Below, in pieces: positions 5,230 through 31,309 of a stretch of DNA of 64,000 nt. The translations under genes and the position numbers were made by a program. Origin of the DNA: a virus; the IMG/VR virus record IMGVR_UViG_3300021141_000706; one strand, given 5' to 3'. The notes under the pieces are model-generated. The model did not search any database and was not told where the DNA came from. It saw nothing but the letters and a program-made list of their open reading frames with translations. Every line of letters begins with the position of its first letter. Within the stretch, counting starts at the first letter, position 1.

Positions 5230-5279
5230 ATATTTTTATTATTTTTGTAAAAAAATATCAAAAGAGATAAAAACTTTTT

Positions 5280-5287
5280 AATATATA
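5280..5287 (+). promoter_or_regulatory. AATATATA putative phage late-promoter motif (representative of about 16 copies)
   Basis: Found just upstream of starts at 5280, 9441, 12761, 14431, 18960, 28401, 28859, 31787, 38185 (+) and 9413, 13931, 21694, 25735, 35797, 39711 (-). Confidence 0.6.
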
Positions 5288-5306
5288 CACATACAATAAA
5301 ATATAT

Positions 5307-5378
5307 TGCGGGGTAGAGCAGGGGTAGCTCGCTAGGCTCATAACCTAGAGGTCGGAGGTTCGAATCCTTCCCCCGCTA
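5307..5378 (+). tRNA. tRNA-Met(CAT), initiator-like
   Basis: Cloverleaf; ctagg-ctCATaa-cctag; 1:72 mismatch and A11:U24. Confidence 0.9.
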
Positions 5379-5396
5379 CTAAAAAAATAAAAAATA

Positions 5397-5428
5397 TTTG
5401 GTGAATTGAAATTGTCACCGTATATTTG
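5397..5428 (+). promoter_or_regulatory. Bacteroidota primary-sigma promoter upstream of leader 1
   Basis: TTTG(5397-5400)-N20-TATATTTG(5421-5428). Confidence 0.7.
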
Positions 5429-5461
5429 TAAAAGAATTAAAAACTATAAAAAACTAAAACA

Positions 5462-5539
5462 ATGACAACAATTACTAACATAGCGTATTATTATGAGGGA
5501 GAGCGTGGCTCAAACGTCAGACTAATGTCTATGTCGTAA
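5462..5539 (+). CDS. Attenuator leader peptide 1 (MTTITNIAYYYEGERGSNVRLMSMS), Tyr/Glu-sensing
   Basis: 25 codons with TAT TAT TAT GAG GGA GAG; contains gtcagact complementary to the terminator arm; Tyr/Glu tRNAs downstream. Confidence 0.8.
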   Translation: MTTITNIAYYYEGERGSNVRLMSMS

Positions 5540-5561
5540 TGGAATCATTATGATATTAACT

Positions 5562-5594
5562 AACCCAGTCTGACTTATCAGACTGGGTTTTTTG
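5562..5594 (+). terminator. Attenuator terminator 1
   Basis: aacccagtctga-ctta-tcagactgggtt plus T-tract. Confidence 0.85.
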
Positions 5595-5608
5595 TTTTAA
5601 ATTAAATT

Positions 5609-5699
5609 GGGAGTGTAACGTCAGCGGCATGTAAGCCGCCCCTCGTAAATATATGGCGTATGGCTTGAGGTAACTAGTGTTCGAATCCTGGTACTCCCA
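5609..5699 (+). ncRNA. Non-canonical tRNA-like RNA (Tyr-like GTA in a 6-nt loop, no clear D arm)
   Basis: Acceptor gggagtg/tactccc, TTCGAAT T-loop with bulged stem, gcggc-atgtaa-gccgc hairpin. Confidence 0.55.
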
Positions 5700-5705
5700 C
5701 AAAAT

Positions 5706-5777
5706 GGTCCTGTCGACTAATGGTCAGGTCAACACCCTTTCAAGGTGTAGATGCGGGTTCGATCCCCGTCGGGACTA
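5706..5777 (+). tRNA. tRNA-Glu(TTC)
   Basis: acacc-ctTTCaa-ggtgt; cloverleaf. Confidence 0.92.
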
Positions 5778-5784
5778 CAAATAT

Positions 5785-5867
5785 GGGAATGATGTGACAC
5801 AGGTAGTCACGCTAGTCTGTAAAACTAGTGCCTTCGGGCGTTGCGAGTTCGAGTCTCGCCATTCCCA
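5785..5867 (+). tRNA. tRNA-Tyr(GTA)
   Basis: ctagt-ctGTAaa-actag; long variable arm. Confidence 0.92.
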
Positions 5868-5885
5868 CAAAAAAATTAACAAATG

Positions 5886-5916
5886 TTTGGATAATTAAAA
5901 AATATCCTTATCTTTG
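5886..5916 (+). promoter_or_regulatory. Internal Bacteroidota-type promoter before the second Glu/Tyr tRNA pair
   Basis: TTTG(5886-89)-N19-TATCTTTG(5909-16). Confidence 0.65.
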
Positions 5917-5932
5917 TAAAAGAATAAAAAAT

Positions 5933-6004
5933 GGTCCGTTAGTGAAGCGGTTAACACGCTGCCCTTTCACGGCAGAGGCACGGGTTCGAATCCCGTACGG
6001 ACTA
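5933..6004 (+). tRNA. tRNA-Glu(TTC)
   Basis: ctgcc-ctTTCac-ggcag. Confidence 0.93.
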
Positions 6005-6010
6005 CAATAT

Positions 6011-6093
6011 TGGAAGGTGGGTGAGTGGTTAAAACCGACAGACTGTAAATCTGTTCTCGCAAGAGTACGGGGGTTCGAATCCCTCCCTTCCAA
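6011..6093 (+). tRNA. tRNA-Tyr(GTA)
   Basis: acaga-ctGTAaa-tctgt; variable arm. Confidence 0.93.
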
Positions 6094-6159
6094 CAAAAAT
6101 TAAAAATAACTAAAAAGGGAGTTAAAACTTTTTATATATACATTAATATAATTAAAACG

Positions 6160-6240
6160 ATGAAAAATTTAAATAACATATCAACAGCGAAAATAGGAGG
6201 CGGCGCGGGAGCGAATGTCACTGGCTGGATTATGTTGTAA
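6160..6240 (+). CDS. Attenuator leader peptide 2 (MKNLNNISTAKIGGGAGANVTGWIML), Gly/Ala-sensing
   Basis: GGA GGC GGC GCG GGA GCG run; tggctggatt pairs with the terminator 5' arm; Gly/Ala tRNAs downstream. Confidence 0.8.
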   Translation: MKNLNNISTAKIGGGAGANVTGWIML

Positions 6241-6263
6241 TTTTTTATCAAAAGAATTAAACG

Positions 6264-6295
6264 AAACCCAGTCAATCAAATGACTGGGTTTTTTT
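6264..6295 (+). terminator. Attenuator terminator 2
   Basis: aaacccagtca-atcaaa-tgactgggttt plus T-tract. Confidence 0.85.
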
Positions 6296-6304
6296 ATTTT
6301 ATAT

Positions 6305-6394
6305 TGGCGAATAGCAGTGGTGTCTTATACACACTATACCTGTAGCGGTAACTTGAGATAGTATCAAACGTGGGTTCGAATCCCACTTCGCCAA
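6305..6394 (+). ncRNA. Non-canonical tRNA-like RNA (possible TAT anticodon arm, no clear D arm)
   Basis: Perfect acceptor tggcgaa/ttcgcca and T arm gtggg-ttcgaat-cccac; atypical core. Confidence 0.6.
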
Positions 6395-6402
6395 CAAAAA
6401 TT

Positions 6403-6474
6403 GCGGGTATCGTATAACGGTTATTACTCCACACTTCCAATGTGGAGATCTCGGTTCGATTCCGGGTACCCGCT
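6403..6474 (+). tRNA. tRNA-Gly(TCC)
   Basis: ccaca-ctTCCaa-tgtgg; U73. Confidence 0.93.
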
Positions 6475-6484
6475 CAAAACATAT

Positions 6485-6560
6485 GGGGTTACATGTTCCA
6501 AGGCTTAGGCGAGTTTGATTTGCGATCAGACTGTGGTGGGTTCGATTCTCACTAGCTCCA
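6485..6560 (+). tRNA. tRNA-Ala(TGC)
   Basis: Loop ttTGCga; G3:U70. Confidence 0.8.
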
Positions 6561-6579
6561 CAAAAAATAAAAAACGAAT

Positions 6580-6753
6580 ATGATAGTATTCAAAAACATA
6601 ATTGATAATAAAACCTATATAATCTATAAGGCACCAAATGGTAATTGTTTAGCAATTCCATTTAGACACGATGGTCCTTCTATCCCTAAATGTGATATGA
6701 AAGAATTTGTGGTTGTAAGCTCTGAAGATGGTAGATTAGATGGGTTTTTATAA
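6580..6753 (+). CDS. Small hypothetical protein (57 aa, MIVFKNIIDNKTY...)
   Basis: Clean ORF between tRNAs; below the ORF-track cutoff. Confidence 0.55.
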   Translation: MIVFKNIIDNKTYIIYKAPNGNCLAIPFRHDGPSIPKCDMKEFVVVSSEDGRLDGFL

Positions 6754-6762
6754 TAGTAAGAT

Positions 6763-6882
6763 ATGGAAAAGAAGATAGTATTAACAGGAGAGTTTGAGTC
6801 AAGTAAAAAGAATTTGGGAAGAGACATAAGTAAAAATGGATTGGATAAATTTATTAAAAGACTTATAAAGAAGAAAAAGTAA
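6763..6882 (+). CDS. Small basic hypothetical protein (39 aa)
   Basis: MEKKIVLTGEFESSKKNLGRDISKNGLDKFIKRLIKKKK. Confidence 0.45.
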   Translation: MEKKIVLTGEFESSKKNLGRDISKNGLDKFIKRLIKKKK

Positions 6883-6887
6883 AATAA

Positions 6888-6959
6888 GCGAAAGTCGTAT
6901 AGTGGCTATTATATCGCCTTGCCAAGGCGAGGACGGGAGTTCGATTCTCCTCTTTCGCT
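6888..6959 (+). tRNA. tRNA-Gly(GCC)
   Basis: tcgcc-ttGCCaa-ggcga; U73. Confidence 0.93.
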
Positions 6960-6978
6960 CAAAAAATAATTATTATGG

Positions 6979-7347
6979 ATGAAAATATGTCCTAATTGTG
7001 AAAAGGTTGTTACCAAAAGAAATAACAAATACTGCGATGCTAAGTGTCAAGTAGAATTTGTAAATAAAGGTATCTATGAGAACATAGAAAATGGAGACAC
7101 AACTCTTTATCATAAGACATATAAAAGACATCTTATCATCAAATATGGTGAAAAATGTATGGAATGTGGTTGGGATAAAGTAAATCCATCAACAGGTAAA
7201 GTTCCAATACAATTAGAACATATAGATGGTAACTCGGATAATAATTCTTTAGATAATTTGAAATTACTTTGTCCAAATTGTCATTCACTAACACCAACAT
7301 ATGGTGCTTTGAATAAAGGAAATGGACGAAAGAATAGAAAAAGATAA
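6979..7347 (+). CDS. HNH endonuclease inside the tRNA array
   Basis: CPNC..YCDAKC, CMECG, LEHIDGNSDNNSLDNLKLLCPNCH. Confidence 0.9.
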   Translation: MKICPNCEKVVTKRNNKYCDAKCQVEFVNKGIYENIENGDTTLYHKTYKRHLIIKYGEKCMECGWDKVNPSTGKVPIQLEHIDGNSDNNSLDNLKLLCPNCHSLTPTYGALNKGNGRKNRKR

Positions 7348-7387
7348 ATGCCGGATGATCCACCGTTGAATCACGGTGCCGGCTCCA

Positions 7388-7461
7388 GGGGAATTAGCTC
7401 ATTTGGCTAGAGCGTTTGAATGGCATTCAAAAGGTGACGAGTTCGATCCTCGTATTCTCCA
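7388..7461 (+). tRNA. tRNA-Ala(GGC)
   Basis: tttga-atGGCat-tcaaa; G3:U70. Confidence 0.88.
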
Positions 7462-7466
7462 CAAAT

Positions 7467-7498
7467 AAAAAAGTCCAGTTATTTAACTGGACTTTTTT
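7467..7498. terminator. Bidirectional intrinsic terminator
   Basis: aaaaaagtccagtt/aactggactttttt between convergent units. Confidence 0.8.
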
Positions 7499-7540
7499 AT
7501 CTTAAATCAAAGACTATAATTTCTGATTCTTTTTTTAATT

Positions 7541-18804: not shown

Positions 18805-18967
18805 TTTGGTAGTTTAAAAATACCTCCATATATTTGTAAAACAATTGAGAGAGGCAACGATTCAGATACAACTTTCAATTATTTTATAAAAAAATTAGGT
18901 GAAATTAAAACTTTTATCTATATTTGTATAAAATAAGTCAAAAGGAACAAAAAACTTTTAATATATA
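18805..18967 (+). promoter_or_regulatory. Stacked promoters for the large tRNA array
   Basis: TTTG(18805)-N20-TATATTTG(18829), second TATATTTG(18919), AATATATA(18960). Confidence 0.65.
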
Positions 18968-18972
18968 CTATA

Positions 18973-19159: not shown

Positions 19160-19244
19160 CGGTAGGTACCCGAGCGGTCTTCAGGGACTAGTCTGATACA
19201 CTAGGTGAGAAATCACAACGTGGGTTCAAATCCCACCCTACCGA
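19160..19244 (+). tRNA. tRNA with Ile(GAT) anticodon and long variable arm
   Basis: ctagt-ctGATac-actag; V-arm gtga-gaaa-tcac. Confidence 0.8.
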
Positions 19245-19250
19245 CAAAAT

Positions 19251-19497: not shown

Positions 19498-19583
19498 TGA
19501 TGGGTGTCCTGAGCGGCGAAAGGACCTGGCTGTTAACCAGACGACATTAAAGTCCACCGTGGGTTCGAGTCCCACCTCATCAG
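19498..19583 (+). tRNA. tRNA with Asn(GTT) anticodon and long variable arm
   Basis: ctgg-ctGTTaa-ccag; V-arm gac-attaaa-gtc; U1:A72, G73. Confidence 0.8.
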
Positions 19584-19589
19584 CAAGAT

Positions 19590-19742: not shown

Positions 19743-19747
19743 CAAAT

Positions 19748-19830
19748 GGTACTGTGGCCGAGTGGTGTCGAAAGACGAGAGGCACAGATCTGCAAAATCT
19801 GTCACACTGGTTCGAGCCCAGTCAGTACCT
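19748..19830 (+). tRNA. tRNA-Cys(GCA) with hairpin inserted in the D-loop
   Basis: cagat-ctGCAaa-atctg; U73; gtc-gaaa-gac in the D-loop. Confidence 0.85.
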
Positions 19831-19835
19831 CAAAC

Positions 19836-20261: not shown

Positions 20262-20345
20262 GCCGATGTGGCTCAGTGGCGACAGCACTGGTTTTGTAAA
20301 CCAGAGACGAATAGTCCAACGGGGGTTCGAGTCCCTCCATCGGCT
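20262..20345 (+). tRNA. tRNA with Thr(TGT) anticodon and long variable arm
   Basis: ctggt-ttTGTaa-accag; V-arm gac-gaata-gtc; U73. Confidence 0.82.
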
Positions 20346-20360
20346 CAAAATAAATCACCT

Positions 20361-20475: not shown

Positions 20476-20562
20476 CGCGGGGTAGAGTAGAGGTCAAACT
20501 CACTGGGCTCATAACCCAGGGTTGCGCAAGTGACACGTCAGGTTCGAATCCTGCCCCCGCTA
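20476..20562 (+). tRNA. Initiator-type tRNA-Met(CAT) with long variable arm
   Basis: C1:U72 mismatch, ctggg-ctCATaa-cccag, V-arm gttgc-gcaa-gtgac. Confidence 0.82.
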
Positions 20563-21892: not shown

Positions 21893-21934
21893 AATAAATT
21901 TTGATATTAAACACTTTTTTCTTAAATTTGTAAA

Positions 21935-23407
21935 ATGAAAAACATCGTAACAAGAATCGCACCCTCACCAACTGGACCTTTTGCTCATATTGGTAATGTA
22001 AGAACACTATTATATAACTACTTTCTTGCTAAGAAAAGTGGTGGTAAATTCTTTGTGAGATTGGAAGACACCGACAGAGACCGTTATACGGCTTCGTTTC
22101 TAACATATTTCAAAGATATGTGTGATTGGCTTGGTATAGTACCAGATGGTTCTTATTGGAACCCAGATCCTTCTATCGGCTCTTTCACTCAATCAACAAG
22201 AGATTATTCTGATAAAGTTAAATTTTTATTAGATAACGAATTTGCTTATTATGCTTTTGATTCTAAAGATGATTTAGACTTGGCTCATAAAACAATTCCT
22301 AACTTCAAATACGATGCTACAACTCGTATGACTATGAAGAACTCATTAACAATGACTAAATCGGATGTTGATGCGGCTATTGCTACAGGTAACTATGTTA
22401 TTCGTTTTGCTGTAACTCCAGATGTTGATGTTGTAATCAACGATGCTATTTTAGGAGATATCACAATCAGTACTAATACTTTAGATGATAAAGTTTTGAT
22501 TAAGTCAAATGGTATTGGTTCTTACCACCTTTGTAATGTTTGTGACGACCACGATATGGGTGTTACTCACGTTCTTAGAGGTAACGAGTGGGTAAACTCA
22601 ACTCCTTTCCATGTTATTCTTTACAAGGCTTTTGGTTGGGATGTTCCAACATTCGCTCATCTACCTTTAATTATGAATCCAGATGGTAAAGGTAAGTTGT
22701 CTAAGAGAACTGCTATGAAGTATGGTATTCCAATTGCGCCACTTGGTTACACTGACGAAAACGGTGTTTACAATGATGGTTGGAAAGATTTAGGTTTTGA
22801 CCCAAAAGCATTTATGAACTATCTTGCCTTAATTGGTTGGAATCCAGGTGCTGAAGTTGAAATTATGTCTATGGATGATATGATTAACTCATTCTCTTTA
22901 GATAGAGTTCACAAGGCTGGGGCTCGTTTCGATATGGATAAAGCAAAGTGGATGAACTCACAATATCTTAAATTAACAGACAATAAAGACTTAATGCCTT
23001 ATGTCCATGTAGTTGATGATAGATACTCTGATGATAAGTTAGATGCTATTGTTTCATTGGCTAAAGATAGAGCTGACTTCAAAACTGACTTAAACAAAAT
23101 TGTTAAATTGTTCTTTGATTTACCAACTATCGATGATAGAAGTAAGTTAGATGATAACTATACAAAAGTTATGTCAGACTTCATCAATAAGATTGATACA
23201 ATCAACTTTGATGATACGAACTCAATCAAAGACACTATCTCAGCAATCTGTAATGATTTAGGTGTTAAGATGGGTAAAGTAATGCCTGGTTTAAGAATGG
23301 CTTTAGTATCTGGTATTGCGGGTCCGGACTTAATGACAACAATGTCAATTTTAGGTAAAGACCAAACTAAGTTGAGAATTAACAACTCGATTGTAGTAAT
23401 GGCTTAA
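21935..23407 (+). CDS. gltX: Glutamyl-tRNA synthetase
   Basis: RIAPSPTG.AHIGN, RLEDTD, DDH.MGVTHVLRG.EW, KLSKR, LRMALV. Confidence 0.95.
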   Translation: MKNIVTRIAPSPTGPFAHIGNVRTLLYNYFLAKKSGGKFFVRLEDTDRDRYTASFLTYFKDMCDWLGIVPDGSYWNPDPSIGSFTQSTRDYSDKVKFLLDNEFAYYAFDSKDDLDLAHKTIPNFKYDATTRMTMKNSLTMTKSDVDAAIATGNYVIRFAVTPDVDVVINDAILGDITISTNTLDDKVLIKSNGIGSYHLCNVCDDHDMGVTHVLRGNEWVNSTPFHVILYKAFGWDVPTFAHLPLIMNPDGKGKLSKRTAMKYGIPIAPLGYTDENGVYNDGWKDLGFDPKAFMNYLALIGWNPGAEVEIMSMDDMINSFSLDRVHKAGARFDMDKAKWMNSQYLKLTDNKDLMPYVHVVDDRYSDDKLDAIVSLAKDRADFKTDLNKIVKLFFDLPTIDDRSKLDDNYTKVMSDFINKIDTINFDDTNSIKDTISAICNDLGVKMGKVMPGLRMALVSGIAGPDLMTTMSILGKDQTKLRINNSIVVMA

Positions 23408-25730: not shown

Positions 25731-25846
25731 AACTTATATATTAAAAAAGTAATTTCAGATATTATTTAAATTAATTCTTAATAAATTTGGATATTGTGGA
25801 TAACCTCCGTATATTTGTATATAAGTAGAAAAAAACTATAGACAAG

Positions 25847-28793: not shown

Positions 28794-28866
28794 TTTGACA
28801 AATTAAAACTTTGTTGTATATTTGTATAAAATAAGAACAAAAGGAAGAAATCCTTTTTAATATATA
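28794..28866 (+). promoter_or_regulatory. Host-type plus late-type promoters for leader 4
   Basis: TTTG(28794)-N19-TATATTTG(28817); AATATATA(28859). Confidence 0.65.
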
Positions 28867-28871
28867 CTGAA

Positions 28872-29042: not shown

Positions 29043-29116
29043 CGGGTAGTGACTAAGGTTTTAAGCACGGGGGCTCTGGAGGCTTCAGTTAGTCGGTTCG
29101 ATTCCGACCTACCCGA
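29043..29116 (+). tRNA. tRNA-Pro(TGG), atypical anticodon loop (C33)
   Basis: C1:G72, A73; ggggc-tcTGGag-gcttc. Confidence 0.7.
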
Positions 29117-29159
29117 CAAAATACTCTTTAGAGAATAGAGTAAAAGAATTCTCAAATAC

Positions 29160-29704: not shown

Positions 29705-31309
29705 ATGAATTTCATTGAAGATAAAATATTAGACAAAAATAATCTTGATAAATTAACATTAAGATTTCCACCAGAACCAAATGGTTACTTACATATTGGT
29801 CACGCTAAATCCATTATACTTAATTTTGGATTAGCTGAAAAGTATAATAGACCTTGTAATCTAAGGTTCGATGATACAAATCCAACTACTGAAGATACTC
29901 ACTATGTAGAATCAATTGTAAAAGATATAGAATGGCTTGGTTACAAACCAGCTAATATTTTCTATACATCTGATTATTTTGACTTTCTTTACAATTGTGC
30001 GATTACTTTAATTAAAAAAGGCTTAGCTTATGTTGATGATTCAACATCTGAAGAAATTGCTTTAATGAAAGGAACTCCAACTTCAGTTGGTAAAGACTCA
30101 CCTTACAAATCTAGATCAGTAGAAGAAAACTTAGACTTATTTAATAGAATGAGATTAGGTGAATTCACCGAAGGTTCTAAAATCTTGAGAGCTAACATTG
30201 ATATGACTTCTCCAAATATGATTTTAAGAGATCCAGTTATTTATAGAATAATCTCTAAGTCACATCACAGAACTGGTGATACTTGGAAGATTTATCCAAT
30301 GTATGACTTTGCTCATCCTTTATCTGATTATAAAGAAGGTATCACTGATTCACTTTGTACTTTAGAATTTGAAGTTCATAGACCTTTATATATGTGGGTA
30401 TTAGAAAATTGTGATTTAGAAAATTCATTACCAGAAGAAACTGAGTTTGCTCGTTTGAACATTGACTATACAGTTATGTCAAAGAGAAAGTTAAAAAGAC
30501 TTGTAGAAGAATCTTATGTTACAGGATGGGATGATCCAAGAATGCCAACTATATCAGGTTTAAGAAGAAGAGGTTTTACACCAAATGCTATTAAAGATTT
30601 TTGTGATAGAATTTCTGTTACAAGAAAAGAATCAGTTGTTTCTTACTTACTTTTAGAAGAATGTTTAAGAACTGATTTGAATGTTGTTGCTAATAGACTA
30701 ATGGGTGTCATGTATCCGATTAAGTTAGTTATTACTAATTGGGATATGGGAACTGAAATGGTTGAAGTTGAAAATAATCCTGGTGATGAAAGTGCTGGAG
30801 TGAGAATGATTCCTTTTAGTGGTGAATTATTTATTGAGGCGGAAGATTTCAGAGAAGAAGCCAATAACAAATTCCACAGATTAAAATTAGGCAGTGAAGT
30901 AAGATTAAAAGGTGCTTATGTTATTAAGGCTAATGAAGTTATCAAGAATGAATTAGGGGAAATTATTGAGATCAGATGTACTTATGATCCTTTAACAAGA
31001 TCGGGTATGACTTTTGAAAGAAAGATTAAAGGAACTATTCACTGGGTATCTGCTGAACACGGAGTTAGAATAAATGTAAATGAATATGATAGATTATTTA
31101 ATGATGAATCACCTGATAAAAATGAAGATGATTTTATCAATTATATCAATCCAGATTCACTTATTATTAACGACAAGGCAATCCTTGAACCTCACGTTTT
31201 AAACGTCAAGGAGCCTGTTCAAATGATGAGAAAAGGGTATTATATTTTAGATACTGACGGTAAAAGTTTCAATAAAACTGTAAGTTTGAAAGAAGGATGG
31301 GTAGGTTAA
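29705..31309 (+). CDS. glnS: Glutaminyl-tRNA synthetase
   Basis: RFPPEPNGYLHIGHAKS, RFDDTNP, IYPMYDFAH, SLCTLEF, VMSKRKL, GWDDPRMPT, KGTIHWVS. Confidence 0.96.
   Translation: MNFIEDKILDKNNLDKLTLRFPPEPNGYLHIGHAKSIILNFGLAEKYNRPCNLRFDDTNPTTEDTHYVESIVKDIEWLGYKPANIFYTSDYFDFLYNCAITLIKKGLAYVDDSTSEEIALMKGTPTSVGKDSPYKSRSVEENLDLFNRMRLGEFTEGSKILRANIDMTSPNMILRDPVIYRIISKSHHRTGDTWKIYPMYDFAHPLSDYKEGITDSLCTLEFEVHRPLYMWVLENCDLENSLPEETEFARLNIDYTVMSKRKLKRLVEESYVTGWDDPRMPTISGLRRRGFTPNAIKDFCDRISVTRKESVVSYLLLEECLRTDLNVVANRLMGVMYPIKLVITNWDMGTEMVEVENNPGDESAGVRMIPFSGELFIEAEDFREEANNKFHRLKLGSEVRLKGAYVIKANEVIKNELGEIIEIRCTYDPLTRSGMTFERKIKGTIHWVSAEHGVRINVNEYDRLFNDESPDKNEDDFINYINPDSLIINDKAILEPHVLNVKEPVQMMRKGYYILDTDGKSFNKTVSLKEGWVG

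Follow-up and report, generated by a model that had tools for sequence, protein, structure and literature searches.

What tRNA genes do for the phages that carry them, and how such genes are controlled, is still an open question. Here we address it for an element, leader 1, in a 64,000-nt sequence from a huge lake phage (IMG/VR record IMGVR_UViG_3300021141_000706; this whole stretch is called the window below), in which a short open reading frame (ORF) and an intrinsic terminator precede Glu and Tyr tRNA genes. We suggest, with a probability of roughly 0.8, that leader 1 is a working ribosome-mediated transcription attenuator of the leader-peptide type, with tRNA genes as its output, and that the phage probably restricts production of these Tyr and Glu tRNAs to times when they are in short supply for the ribosomes. 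A first-pass annotation had already read the locus as a Tyr/Glu attenuator. Sequence comparison and folding models support that reading through the match between leader codons and downstream tRNAs, the match between antiterminator and terminator, Tyr/Glu content that survives reshuffling of the peptide, a predicted dependence of folding on ribosome position, and the absence of room for a promoter behind the terminator.

The leader ORF lies in an A-rich 5' context without a Shine-Dalgarno sequence and carries the codons TAT TAT TAT GAG GGA GAG at 5486-5503, which can be read directly in frame with the ATG at 5462. The tRNA-Tyr(GTA) and tRNA-Glu(TTC) encoded downstream decode these regulatory codons. 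Given the amino-acid usage of the phage (Tyr 5.5%, Glu 6.2%), at least five Tyr or Glu residues in six consecutive codons would be expected in a random 24-codon ORF with P = 0.0016. Thirteen nt past 5503, gtcagact (5516-5523) is the exact reverse complement of agtctgac (5567-5574), which comprises seven bases of the terminator 5' arm and the first loop base. The codon run, its 13-nt distance to gtcagact and the complement in the 5' arm and loop of the terminator had been pointed out in the first-pass annotation and were confirmed on the letters, every coordinate it gave for leader 1 being right. In a nascent leader-1 RNA lacking the terminator 3' arm, the minimum free energy fold pairs 5516-5523 with 5567-5574. 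The T-run of the terminator (5588-5593) is followed by one G and then TTTT. The first downstream gene follows the T-run after only 15 nt, a gap too short for a promoter, and the genes behind the terminator therefore need read-through.

Ribosome position was modeled by masking the RNA as far as 13 nt beyond the first base in the A site, an edge that was assumed. In these folds, about 7 of the 12 bases of the terminator 5' arm are sequestered for all A sites up to Glu14, and 6.8 at Arg15; the number drops to 3.7 at Gly16 and to 0.3 at Ser17, the antiterminator pairing being lost when the ribosome covers 5517-5520. A ribosome waiting for Tyr or Glu is thus predicted to leave the antiterminator free, and one that has moved past those codons to remove it. 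The same boundary lies directly 3' of the cognate run in the other four leaders of the window, and it follows the cognate run in most of the 53 distinct leaders collected. It does so, too, in five leaders retrieved blind to leader sequence (L123, L126, L130, L133 and L138). Among 44 distinct leader peptides, whose mutual relatedness inflates any P value, cognate codons account for 239 of 416 in the ten positions up to the boundary versus 76 of 446 beyond it.

Leader 1 belongs to a family of modules, which we define as a short ORF with an intrinsic terminator behind it and then, 2-30 nt further on, the first of the tRNA genes. The window holds five modules of identical build (Table 1). Its nearest annotated relatives are two records labeled "uncultured phage", with about 74% identity over the tRNA region, and it is from these two relatives that our whole-genome module counts come. 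LR745206.1 (634,780 bp) has seven modules, the additional ones being HKNFSKSHKWF, which precedes His, Phe, Trp and Lys tRNAs, and SKSSSRSSS, which precedes Arg and Ser tRNAs; LR756502.1 (642,428 bp) has six, plus a seventh with a small ORF between terminator and tRNAs. Each pair of leader and cluster was scored by how large a share of the leader residues matches the tRNA isotypes in the cluster. On this score, the true assignment was the single best of 120 permutations in the window, of 5040 in LR745206.1 and of 720 in LR756502.1. Moreover, post-regulatory leader segments find their best partners in their own terminator arms: among 120, 5040 and 720 assignments, the identity assignment again ranks first. 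Chance as the source of the matches is rejected by these permutation tests together with the codon-run probability given above.

Homologous leader ORFs are found in W01, W02, IMG/VR contigs and 19 metagenome contigs. A first pattern scan of IMG/VR gave 70 matches, of which L033, L063 and L066 were real homologues and the rest chance; the full leader-1 set of IMG/VR homologues, the 19 metagenome contigs, the window and two reference phages contains 19 distinct nucleotide versions. In these relatives, frame 0 holds five to seven Tyr/Glu codons versus none to four in the other frames. Close relatives retain YYYE-x-E, while x, Gly in leader 1, is encoded by GGA, GGT or GAA and residue 15 is Arg, Gln or Cys. 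The cores seen among relatives are YYYEGE, YYYEEE and ETYYYEAYEE and, in distant relatives, SYESYYEE, GYTGYEGAYSE, GYEAYEY and GYYEGE. Tyr/Glu content is thus kept, at five to eight in-frame codons over all leader-1 relatives, while its order is reshuffled, and Glu/Tyr tRNAs stand behind all these leaders. The leader-1 terminator is kept in all homologues. The RNAalifold consensus of the 19 homologues consists of a 4-bp AGAC/GUCU mini-hairpin, hairpin P2 and the terminator; P2 is present in 19/19, with a CG-to-UA double change in two.

Leader-blind retrieval used a 23-nt word of tRNA-Glu as the query. L123, obtained in this way, has the leader ETYYYEAYEE and an altered terminator arm (…CCAGTCAA), and its antiterminator, GACTGG, has changed along with the arm. 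In L133, the leader IYIGYIAEGGYEAG stands before Glu, Glu, Glu, Tyr, Tyr and Gly tRNAs and has another matched terminator/antiterminator pair. In L130 and L138, the Glu/Tyr cluster is extended by Ile, Gly and Ala tRNAs, and no second leader intervenes. Because the single leader of these contigs, IINIEAIGYAYEAG, gains Ile, Gly and Ala codons with those tRNAs, leader content follows cluster content.

Based on these results, we propose the following course of events. Transcription would begin at the promoter-like site 5397-5428, and the 25-codon leader would be translated as RNA polymerase advances. With charged tRNA-Tyr and tRNA-Glu in ample supply, the ribosome would run beyond codon 15 toward the stop codon and cover or unwind 5516-5523; with this strand masked, the terminator hairpin (5562-5589) would fold and transcription would stop at the T-run, at about 5593. 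If either tRNA were scarce, the ribosome would stall with TAT or GAG in its A site and with its front just short of 5516. In that state 5516-5523 could pair with 5567-5574 once the latter is transcribed, the terminator would be delayed, and the polymerase would enter the Tyr-like element, tRNA-Glu and tRNA-Tyr. The new tRNAs would relieve the stall, a negative feedback on tRNA supply. The second Glu/Tyr pair has a promoter-like site of its own, so that it is probably independent of the switch. In this scheme we infer that the ORF is translated, that transcription is coupled to translation and that stalling affects termination.

Table 1. Positions of leader 1, its putative control elements and the downstream tRNA genes, and composition of the five modules in the window.
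Feature	Position	Strand	Details
Leader promoter-like site	5397-5428	+	Bacteroidota type TTTG ... TAnnTTTG; spacer palindrome GGTGA..TCACC; extended TTTGTAAAAGAAT
Leader ORF	5462-5539	+	25 codons + stop; ATG 5462-5464, TAA 5537-5539; peptide MTTITNIAYYYEGERGSNVRLMSMS
Regulatory codons	5486-5503	+	TAT TAT TAT GAG GGA GAG (Tyr x3, Glu, Gly, Glu); codons 9-14, in frame
Antiterminator 5' strand	5516-5523	+	gtcagact; within codons Val19-Arg20-Leu21; exact complement of 5567-5574
Hairpin P2	5531-5556	+	about 8-11 bp; holds the stop codon; enclosed by the antiterminator helix
Intrinsic terminator	5562-5593	+	12-bp stem 5562-5573/5578-5589, loop CTTA, six T 5588-5593
tRNA-like element	5609-5700	+	acceptor stem, GCGGC hairpin with 6-nt loop ATGTAA, long arm, T-like arm; no D arm
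tRNA-Glu(TTC), first copy	5706-5778	+	ARAGORN and Rfam, 61.9 bits; reachable solely by terminator read-through
tRNA-Tyr(GTA), first copy	5785-5868	+	ARAGORN and Rfam, 32.8 bits, barely above cut-off; divergent, long-arm
Internal promoter-like site	5886-5916	+	TTTG-N-TAnnTTTG; 16 nt before second tRNA-Glu; shares extended TTTGTAAAAGAAT with 5397-5428
tRNA-Glu(TTC), second copy	5933-6005	+	ARAGORN and Rfam, 70.7 bits; clearly unlike first copy (by eye)
tRNA-Tyr(GTA), second copy	6011-6094	+	ARAGORN and Rfam, 61.9 bits
Module core YYYEGE			tRNAs behind terminator: Glu, Tyr
Module core GGGAGA			tRNAs behind terminator: Gly, Ala
Module core MNLNMNMNTLTVVNNTLCIR			tRNAs behind terminator: Ile, Arg, Asn, Leu, Val, Thr, Met
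Module core PQPQ..DQDPD			tRNAs behind terminator: Asp, Pro
Module core QYQQQQ			behind terminator: tRNA Gln, Gln, then GlnRS-type gene

Several observations weigh against an attenuator. The antiterminator of leader 1 spans only 8 bp, the terminator state exceeds it in stability by about 10 kcal/mol (-33.1 versus -23.3), and a toehold, AACCC, is left free where the 5' arm has its base. With a more stable terminator and a free toehold, any effect of the antiterminator must be kinetic. In addition, leader 1 also folds the antiterminator without translation, the sole candidate for an anti-antiterminator being the 4-bp mini-hairpin; since the untranslated leader folds in this way, the ribosome-free default would be read-through. 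The complementarity in leader 1, taken alone, does not exceed chance (z = -1.7; 6.5% of leader-segment shuffles pair equally well), and the patterns that fetched most leader-1 homologues fixed both antiterminator strands, so that covariation cannot be judged in that alignment. In L095 and L096, the leader-1 terminator is directly followed by a promoter of the internal type and then by Glu and Tyr tRNAs. The switch governs little there, and it seems that the attenuated gene pair was lost while the attenuator stayed. Finally, the host is uncultured, and coupling of transcription and translation during infection by a Bacteroidota phage is an assumption.

RNA data count in favor of the attenuator, though weakly. 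They consist of contigs from four metatranscriptome libraries over 5240-7500, for which DNA carry-over is possible, and such contigs prove neither RNA ends nor transcription. Contigs from three of the libraries cover leader 1. A 123-nt contig runs from 5471 to 5593, its end coinciding with the final T of the terminator, which is no more than suggestive; two contigs cross the terminator (5381-5643 and 5473-5690). Further contigs span 5326-5500 and 5381-5500, and another, 6117-6326, covers leader 2 and its terminator.

One rival explanation is a leaky terminator behind a small ORF, translated or untranslated, with a fixed low read-through into the tRNA genes and no sensing, where shared history would have produced the codon match incidentally. 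The far greater stability of the terminator and the promoter that directly follows the module in L095/L096 fit such an arrangement, and the support for a switch is computational only. However, a leaky terminator leaves unexplained why seven different leaders each fit their own tRNA cluster, why Tyr/Glu content survives reshuffling of the peptide, and why the cognate run always stops just before the point at which the antiterminator is masked. We therefore regard it as improbable.

A switch of opposite polarity, with stalling leading to termination, or a general sensor of amino-acid starvation that times phage development, appears more doubtful still. Attenuators cannot separate low tRNA from low charging, and the polarity proposed here is taken from folding alone. 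In the folds of all five window leaders, however, as in those of independent relatives, the antiterminator is left free by a ribosome at the cognate codons and blocked by one farther along, and the output consists of exactly those tRNAs by which the sensed codons are read.

Rfam gave no sign of a known RNA-based leader. Over the whole window at gathering score, it returned tRNA matches only and no leader family, and at E<=10 over 5380-6120 and 5598-5706 it found no leader, riboswitch or T-box family; the matches below cut-off over 5380-6120 were terminator-driven (NsiR1, 31 bits; trpB motif, 28 bits). An untranslated leader RNA that binds tRNA directly through codon-like triplets, ribosome-free in the manner of a T-box, would likewise match its triplets to the downstream tRNAs and would also have an output in the translation apparatus, as T-boxes do, but it is very improbable, and is ruled out as the principal explanation, given the absence of a T-box or other riboswitch family at gathering score, cognate triplets in frame with a conserved ATG, a conserved stop at a fixed distance before the terminator, and several amino acids per leader at positions that shift among relatives, which points to decoding and not to a structured specifier.

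Turning to the genes behind the attenuator proposed here, ARAGORN and Rfam agree on all four Glu, Tyr, Glu and Tyr tRNAs that the first-pass annotation had listed. The "Tyr-like RNA" that it listed beside them (here 5609-5700) does have a tRNA-like fold, and four relatives (L101, L103, L105 and L110) carry a true tRNA-Tyr in the same first slot, but it is not a recognizable tRNA: it has no RF00005 match in Rfam at E<=10, and ARAGORN is silent at default and -ps settings, finding it only at a 50% threshold. The element diverges fast in L063, L066 and L033. It is probably what decay has left of a tRNA-Tyr copy, and it may have a function, such as that of a processing handle. At L087 2098-2161 (LR756502.1), the Tyr-like element is replaced by a mini-helix ending in CCACCA (GGGAG..TTCCC-ACCA), which resembles an isolated acceptor stem. 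L102 (rc 6933) and L108 (rc 4203) have a CTA-anticodon tRNA within the Glu/Tyr cluster, labeled "Pyl" by ARAGORN, possibly an amber suppressor.

The two promoter-like sites, before leader 1 and before the second tRNA-Glu, have in common TTTGG, a spacer palindrome, TATCTTTG and then TAAAAGAAT. Since the loose Bacteroidota promoter motif is weakly enriched in the window (12 matches versus 6.5 expected), the promoter calls rest on this extended shared motif and on conservation; a sigma-70 promoter scan was uninformative in DNA of 29% GC (15 matches versus 8.6 expected). W01 has a site similar to 5397-5428, and in W02 the leader directly follows tRNA-Met. At the internal site, 5886-5916, which had been proposed to express the second Glu/Tyr pair independently, the motif is indeed present. 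A near-identical motif stands directly before tRNA-Glu in L063, L094, L095/96, L097, L102/108, L106 and L109, with looser matches in L099, L100 and L101/103, but the motif is absent from both reference phages, where the Glu/Tyr cluster is contiguous. An unattenuated second pair, and with it a combination of attenuated and unattenuated copies, is plausible from these motifs. The phage host probably belongs to the Bacteroidota.

Spacer palindromes lie between the TTTG and TAnnTTTG boxes at 5397-5428, 5886-5916, 18805-18836, 25786-25817 and 28794-28824. Their arms vary among sites yet remain complementary (GGTGA/TCACC, GGATA/TATCC, ACAAA/TTTGT), and the palindrome could act within the promoter as an operator or as a signal in hairpin form. 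A further motif, ACTTTTTAATATATAC, occurs only before tRNA units, at 5273-5288 (tRNA-Met), 18953-18968 (leader 3) and 28852-28867 (leader 4), which makes 3 matches versus 0.7 expected; a variant lies near 6123-6140, before leader 2. The motif ends 4-5 nt upstream of the ATG in leaders 3 and 4, and the mRNAs of these leaders might be nearly leaderless.

The window as a whole has 29.4% GC and 32 tRNA genes, and its region 5240-7500 is present almost whole in 14 lake or freshwater DNA runs from 12 studies. Met tRNAs, including that at 5307-5379, have their own promoter and no leader. The window also encodes a ClpB-like ATPase, a GluRS-type gene (21935-23407) with a promoter-like site at 21900-21930 and no leader, and a GlnRS-type gene (29705-31309) directly behind the Gln leader and two tRNA-Gln genes. 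The Gly/Ala tRNA unit includes, between leader 2 and a terminator at 7469-7496, an HNH endonuclease gene and two small ORFs (6979-7347). Four tRNAs of 85-87 nt combine a long variable arm with anticodons of short-arm type (Ile GAT, Asn GTT, Thr TGT and Met CAT; sites 19160-19245, 19498-19584, 20262-20346 and 20477-20561), each with a normal-length twin nearby. By eye, two more tRNA-like elements without an ARAGORN call are found at 29043-29118 and 19745-19832. One of them is the first element behind the leader-4 terminator, and the other, long-armed and part of the big array, has GCA (Cys) in its loop and would explain why leader 3 contains a Cys codon.

Similar designs are found beyond the window-type phages. 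In the unrelated Caulobacter phage phiCbK, whose modules count as further support for the attenuator, a leader with QFVRQIQVVRNI and a terminator lead into a Tyr-like element and then tRNAs for Phe, Val, Ile, Ile, Val, Gln and Gln, and in a second module a leader rich in S, A, L, P, T and K and a terminator precede Pro, Lys, Leu, Ala and Ser tRNAs. In a different phage lineage (L126 7764-7888; IMG/VR contig 3300020045_016347), the leader MKTMILHTQRLQEPK... and a terminator stand before a six-isotype tRNA array; its LHTQRLQEP, ahead of Pro, Glu, Gln, His, Leu and Arg tRNAs, packs the six isotypes into nine consecutive codons, and the antiterminator boundary lies directly after this run. Because the design recurs in unrelated phages, it would amount to a general principle of tRNA gene control. 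We think it likely that tRNA groups are autoregulated by their own products through decoding speed, that the leaders together act as a homeostat with five to seven channels across the genome, and that this principle is general and so far undescribed. Full-text literature searches found no description of attenuation of tRNA genes, and the string "attenuat" is absent from the text of the huge-phage paper PMC7162821.

A leader switch whose output is its own decoding tRNA would directly sense tRNA supply and feed back on it. If our reading is correct, the homeostat would top up whichever tRNAs become limiting through codon-usage mismatch, host shut-off or host anticodon nucleases. It would predict which tRNAs run short during infection and whether the phage responds to tRNA-cleaving host defenses. 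The modules would also offer compact codon-specific sensors for synthetic biology, and a sequence signature by which odd phage tRNAs could be assigned to the codons they serve.

Among known systems, the enterobacterial leaders trpL, hisL, leuL, thrL, ilvL and pheL are leader-peptide attenuators of amino-acid biosynthetic operons, and multivalent leaders are known in ilv and thr. As in the trpL type, an ORF with a run of regulatory codons is combined in leader 1 with an intrinsic terminator and with an antiterminator that excludes the terminator and has its 5' strand just past the stalled ribosome. Moreover, the antiterminator of the trp attenuator is weaker than its terminator, the same order of stability as in leader 1. 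Unlike these attenuators, leader 1 is borne by a phage, has no clear 1:2 anti-antiterminator, and has as its output not biosynthetic enzymes but tRNA genes that read the sensed codons, so that the product closes the loop. Nearest in logic is the pheST attenuator of Escherichia coli, in which the pheM leader peptide, with cognate codons, controls the synthetase for the same amino acid. Here, too, a leader peptide would control a component of the translation apparatus for the amino acid that it senses, and leader 5, with its Gln codons, two tRNA-Gln genes and a GlnRS-type gene, is a near parallel; leader 1, in contrast, controls tRNA genes only. As in a T-box, a specific tRNA would be sensed and a terminator/antiterminator pair switched before translation-related genes, but a T-box binds uncharged tRNA and is untranslated, whereas the triplets of leader 1 form an ORF. 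The phiCbK modules are unrelated in sequence, host and GC, and compared with them window-type phages split the system into up to seven narrow, amino-acid-specific modules. The feedback logic is known for amino-acid operons and one synthetase operon; what is new, as far as we found, is the output, in that the regulated tRNAs decode the sensed codons and a whole set of amino-acid-specific channels is present in one phage genome.

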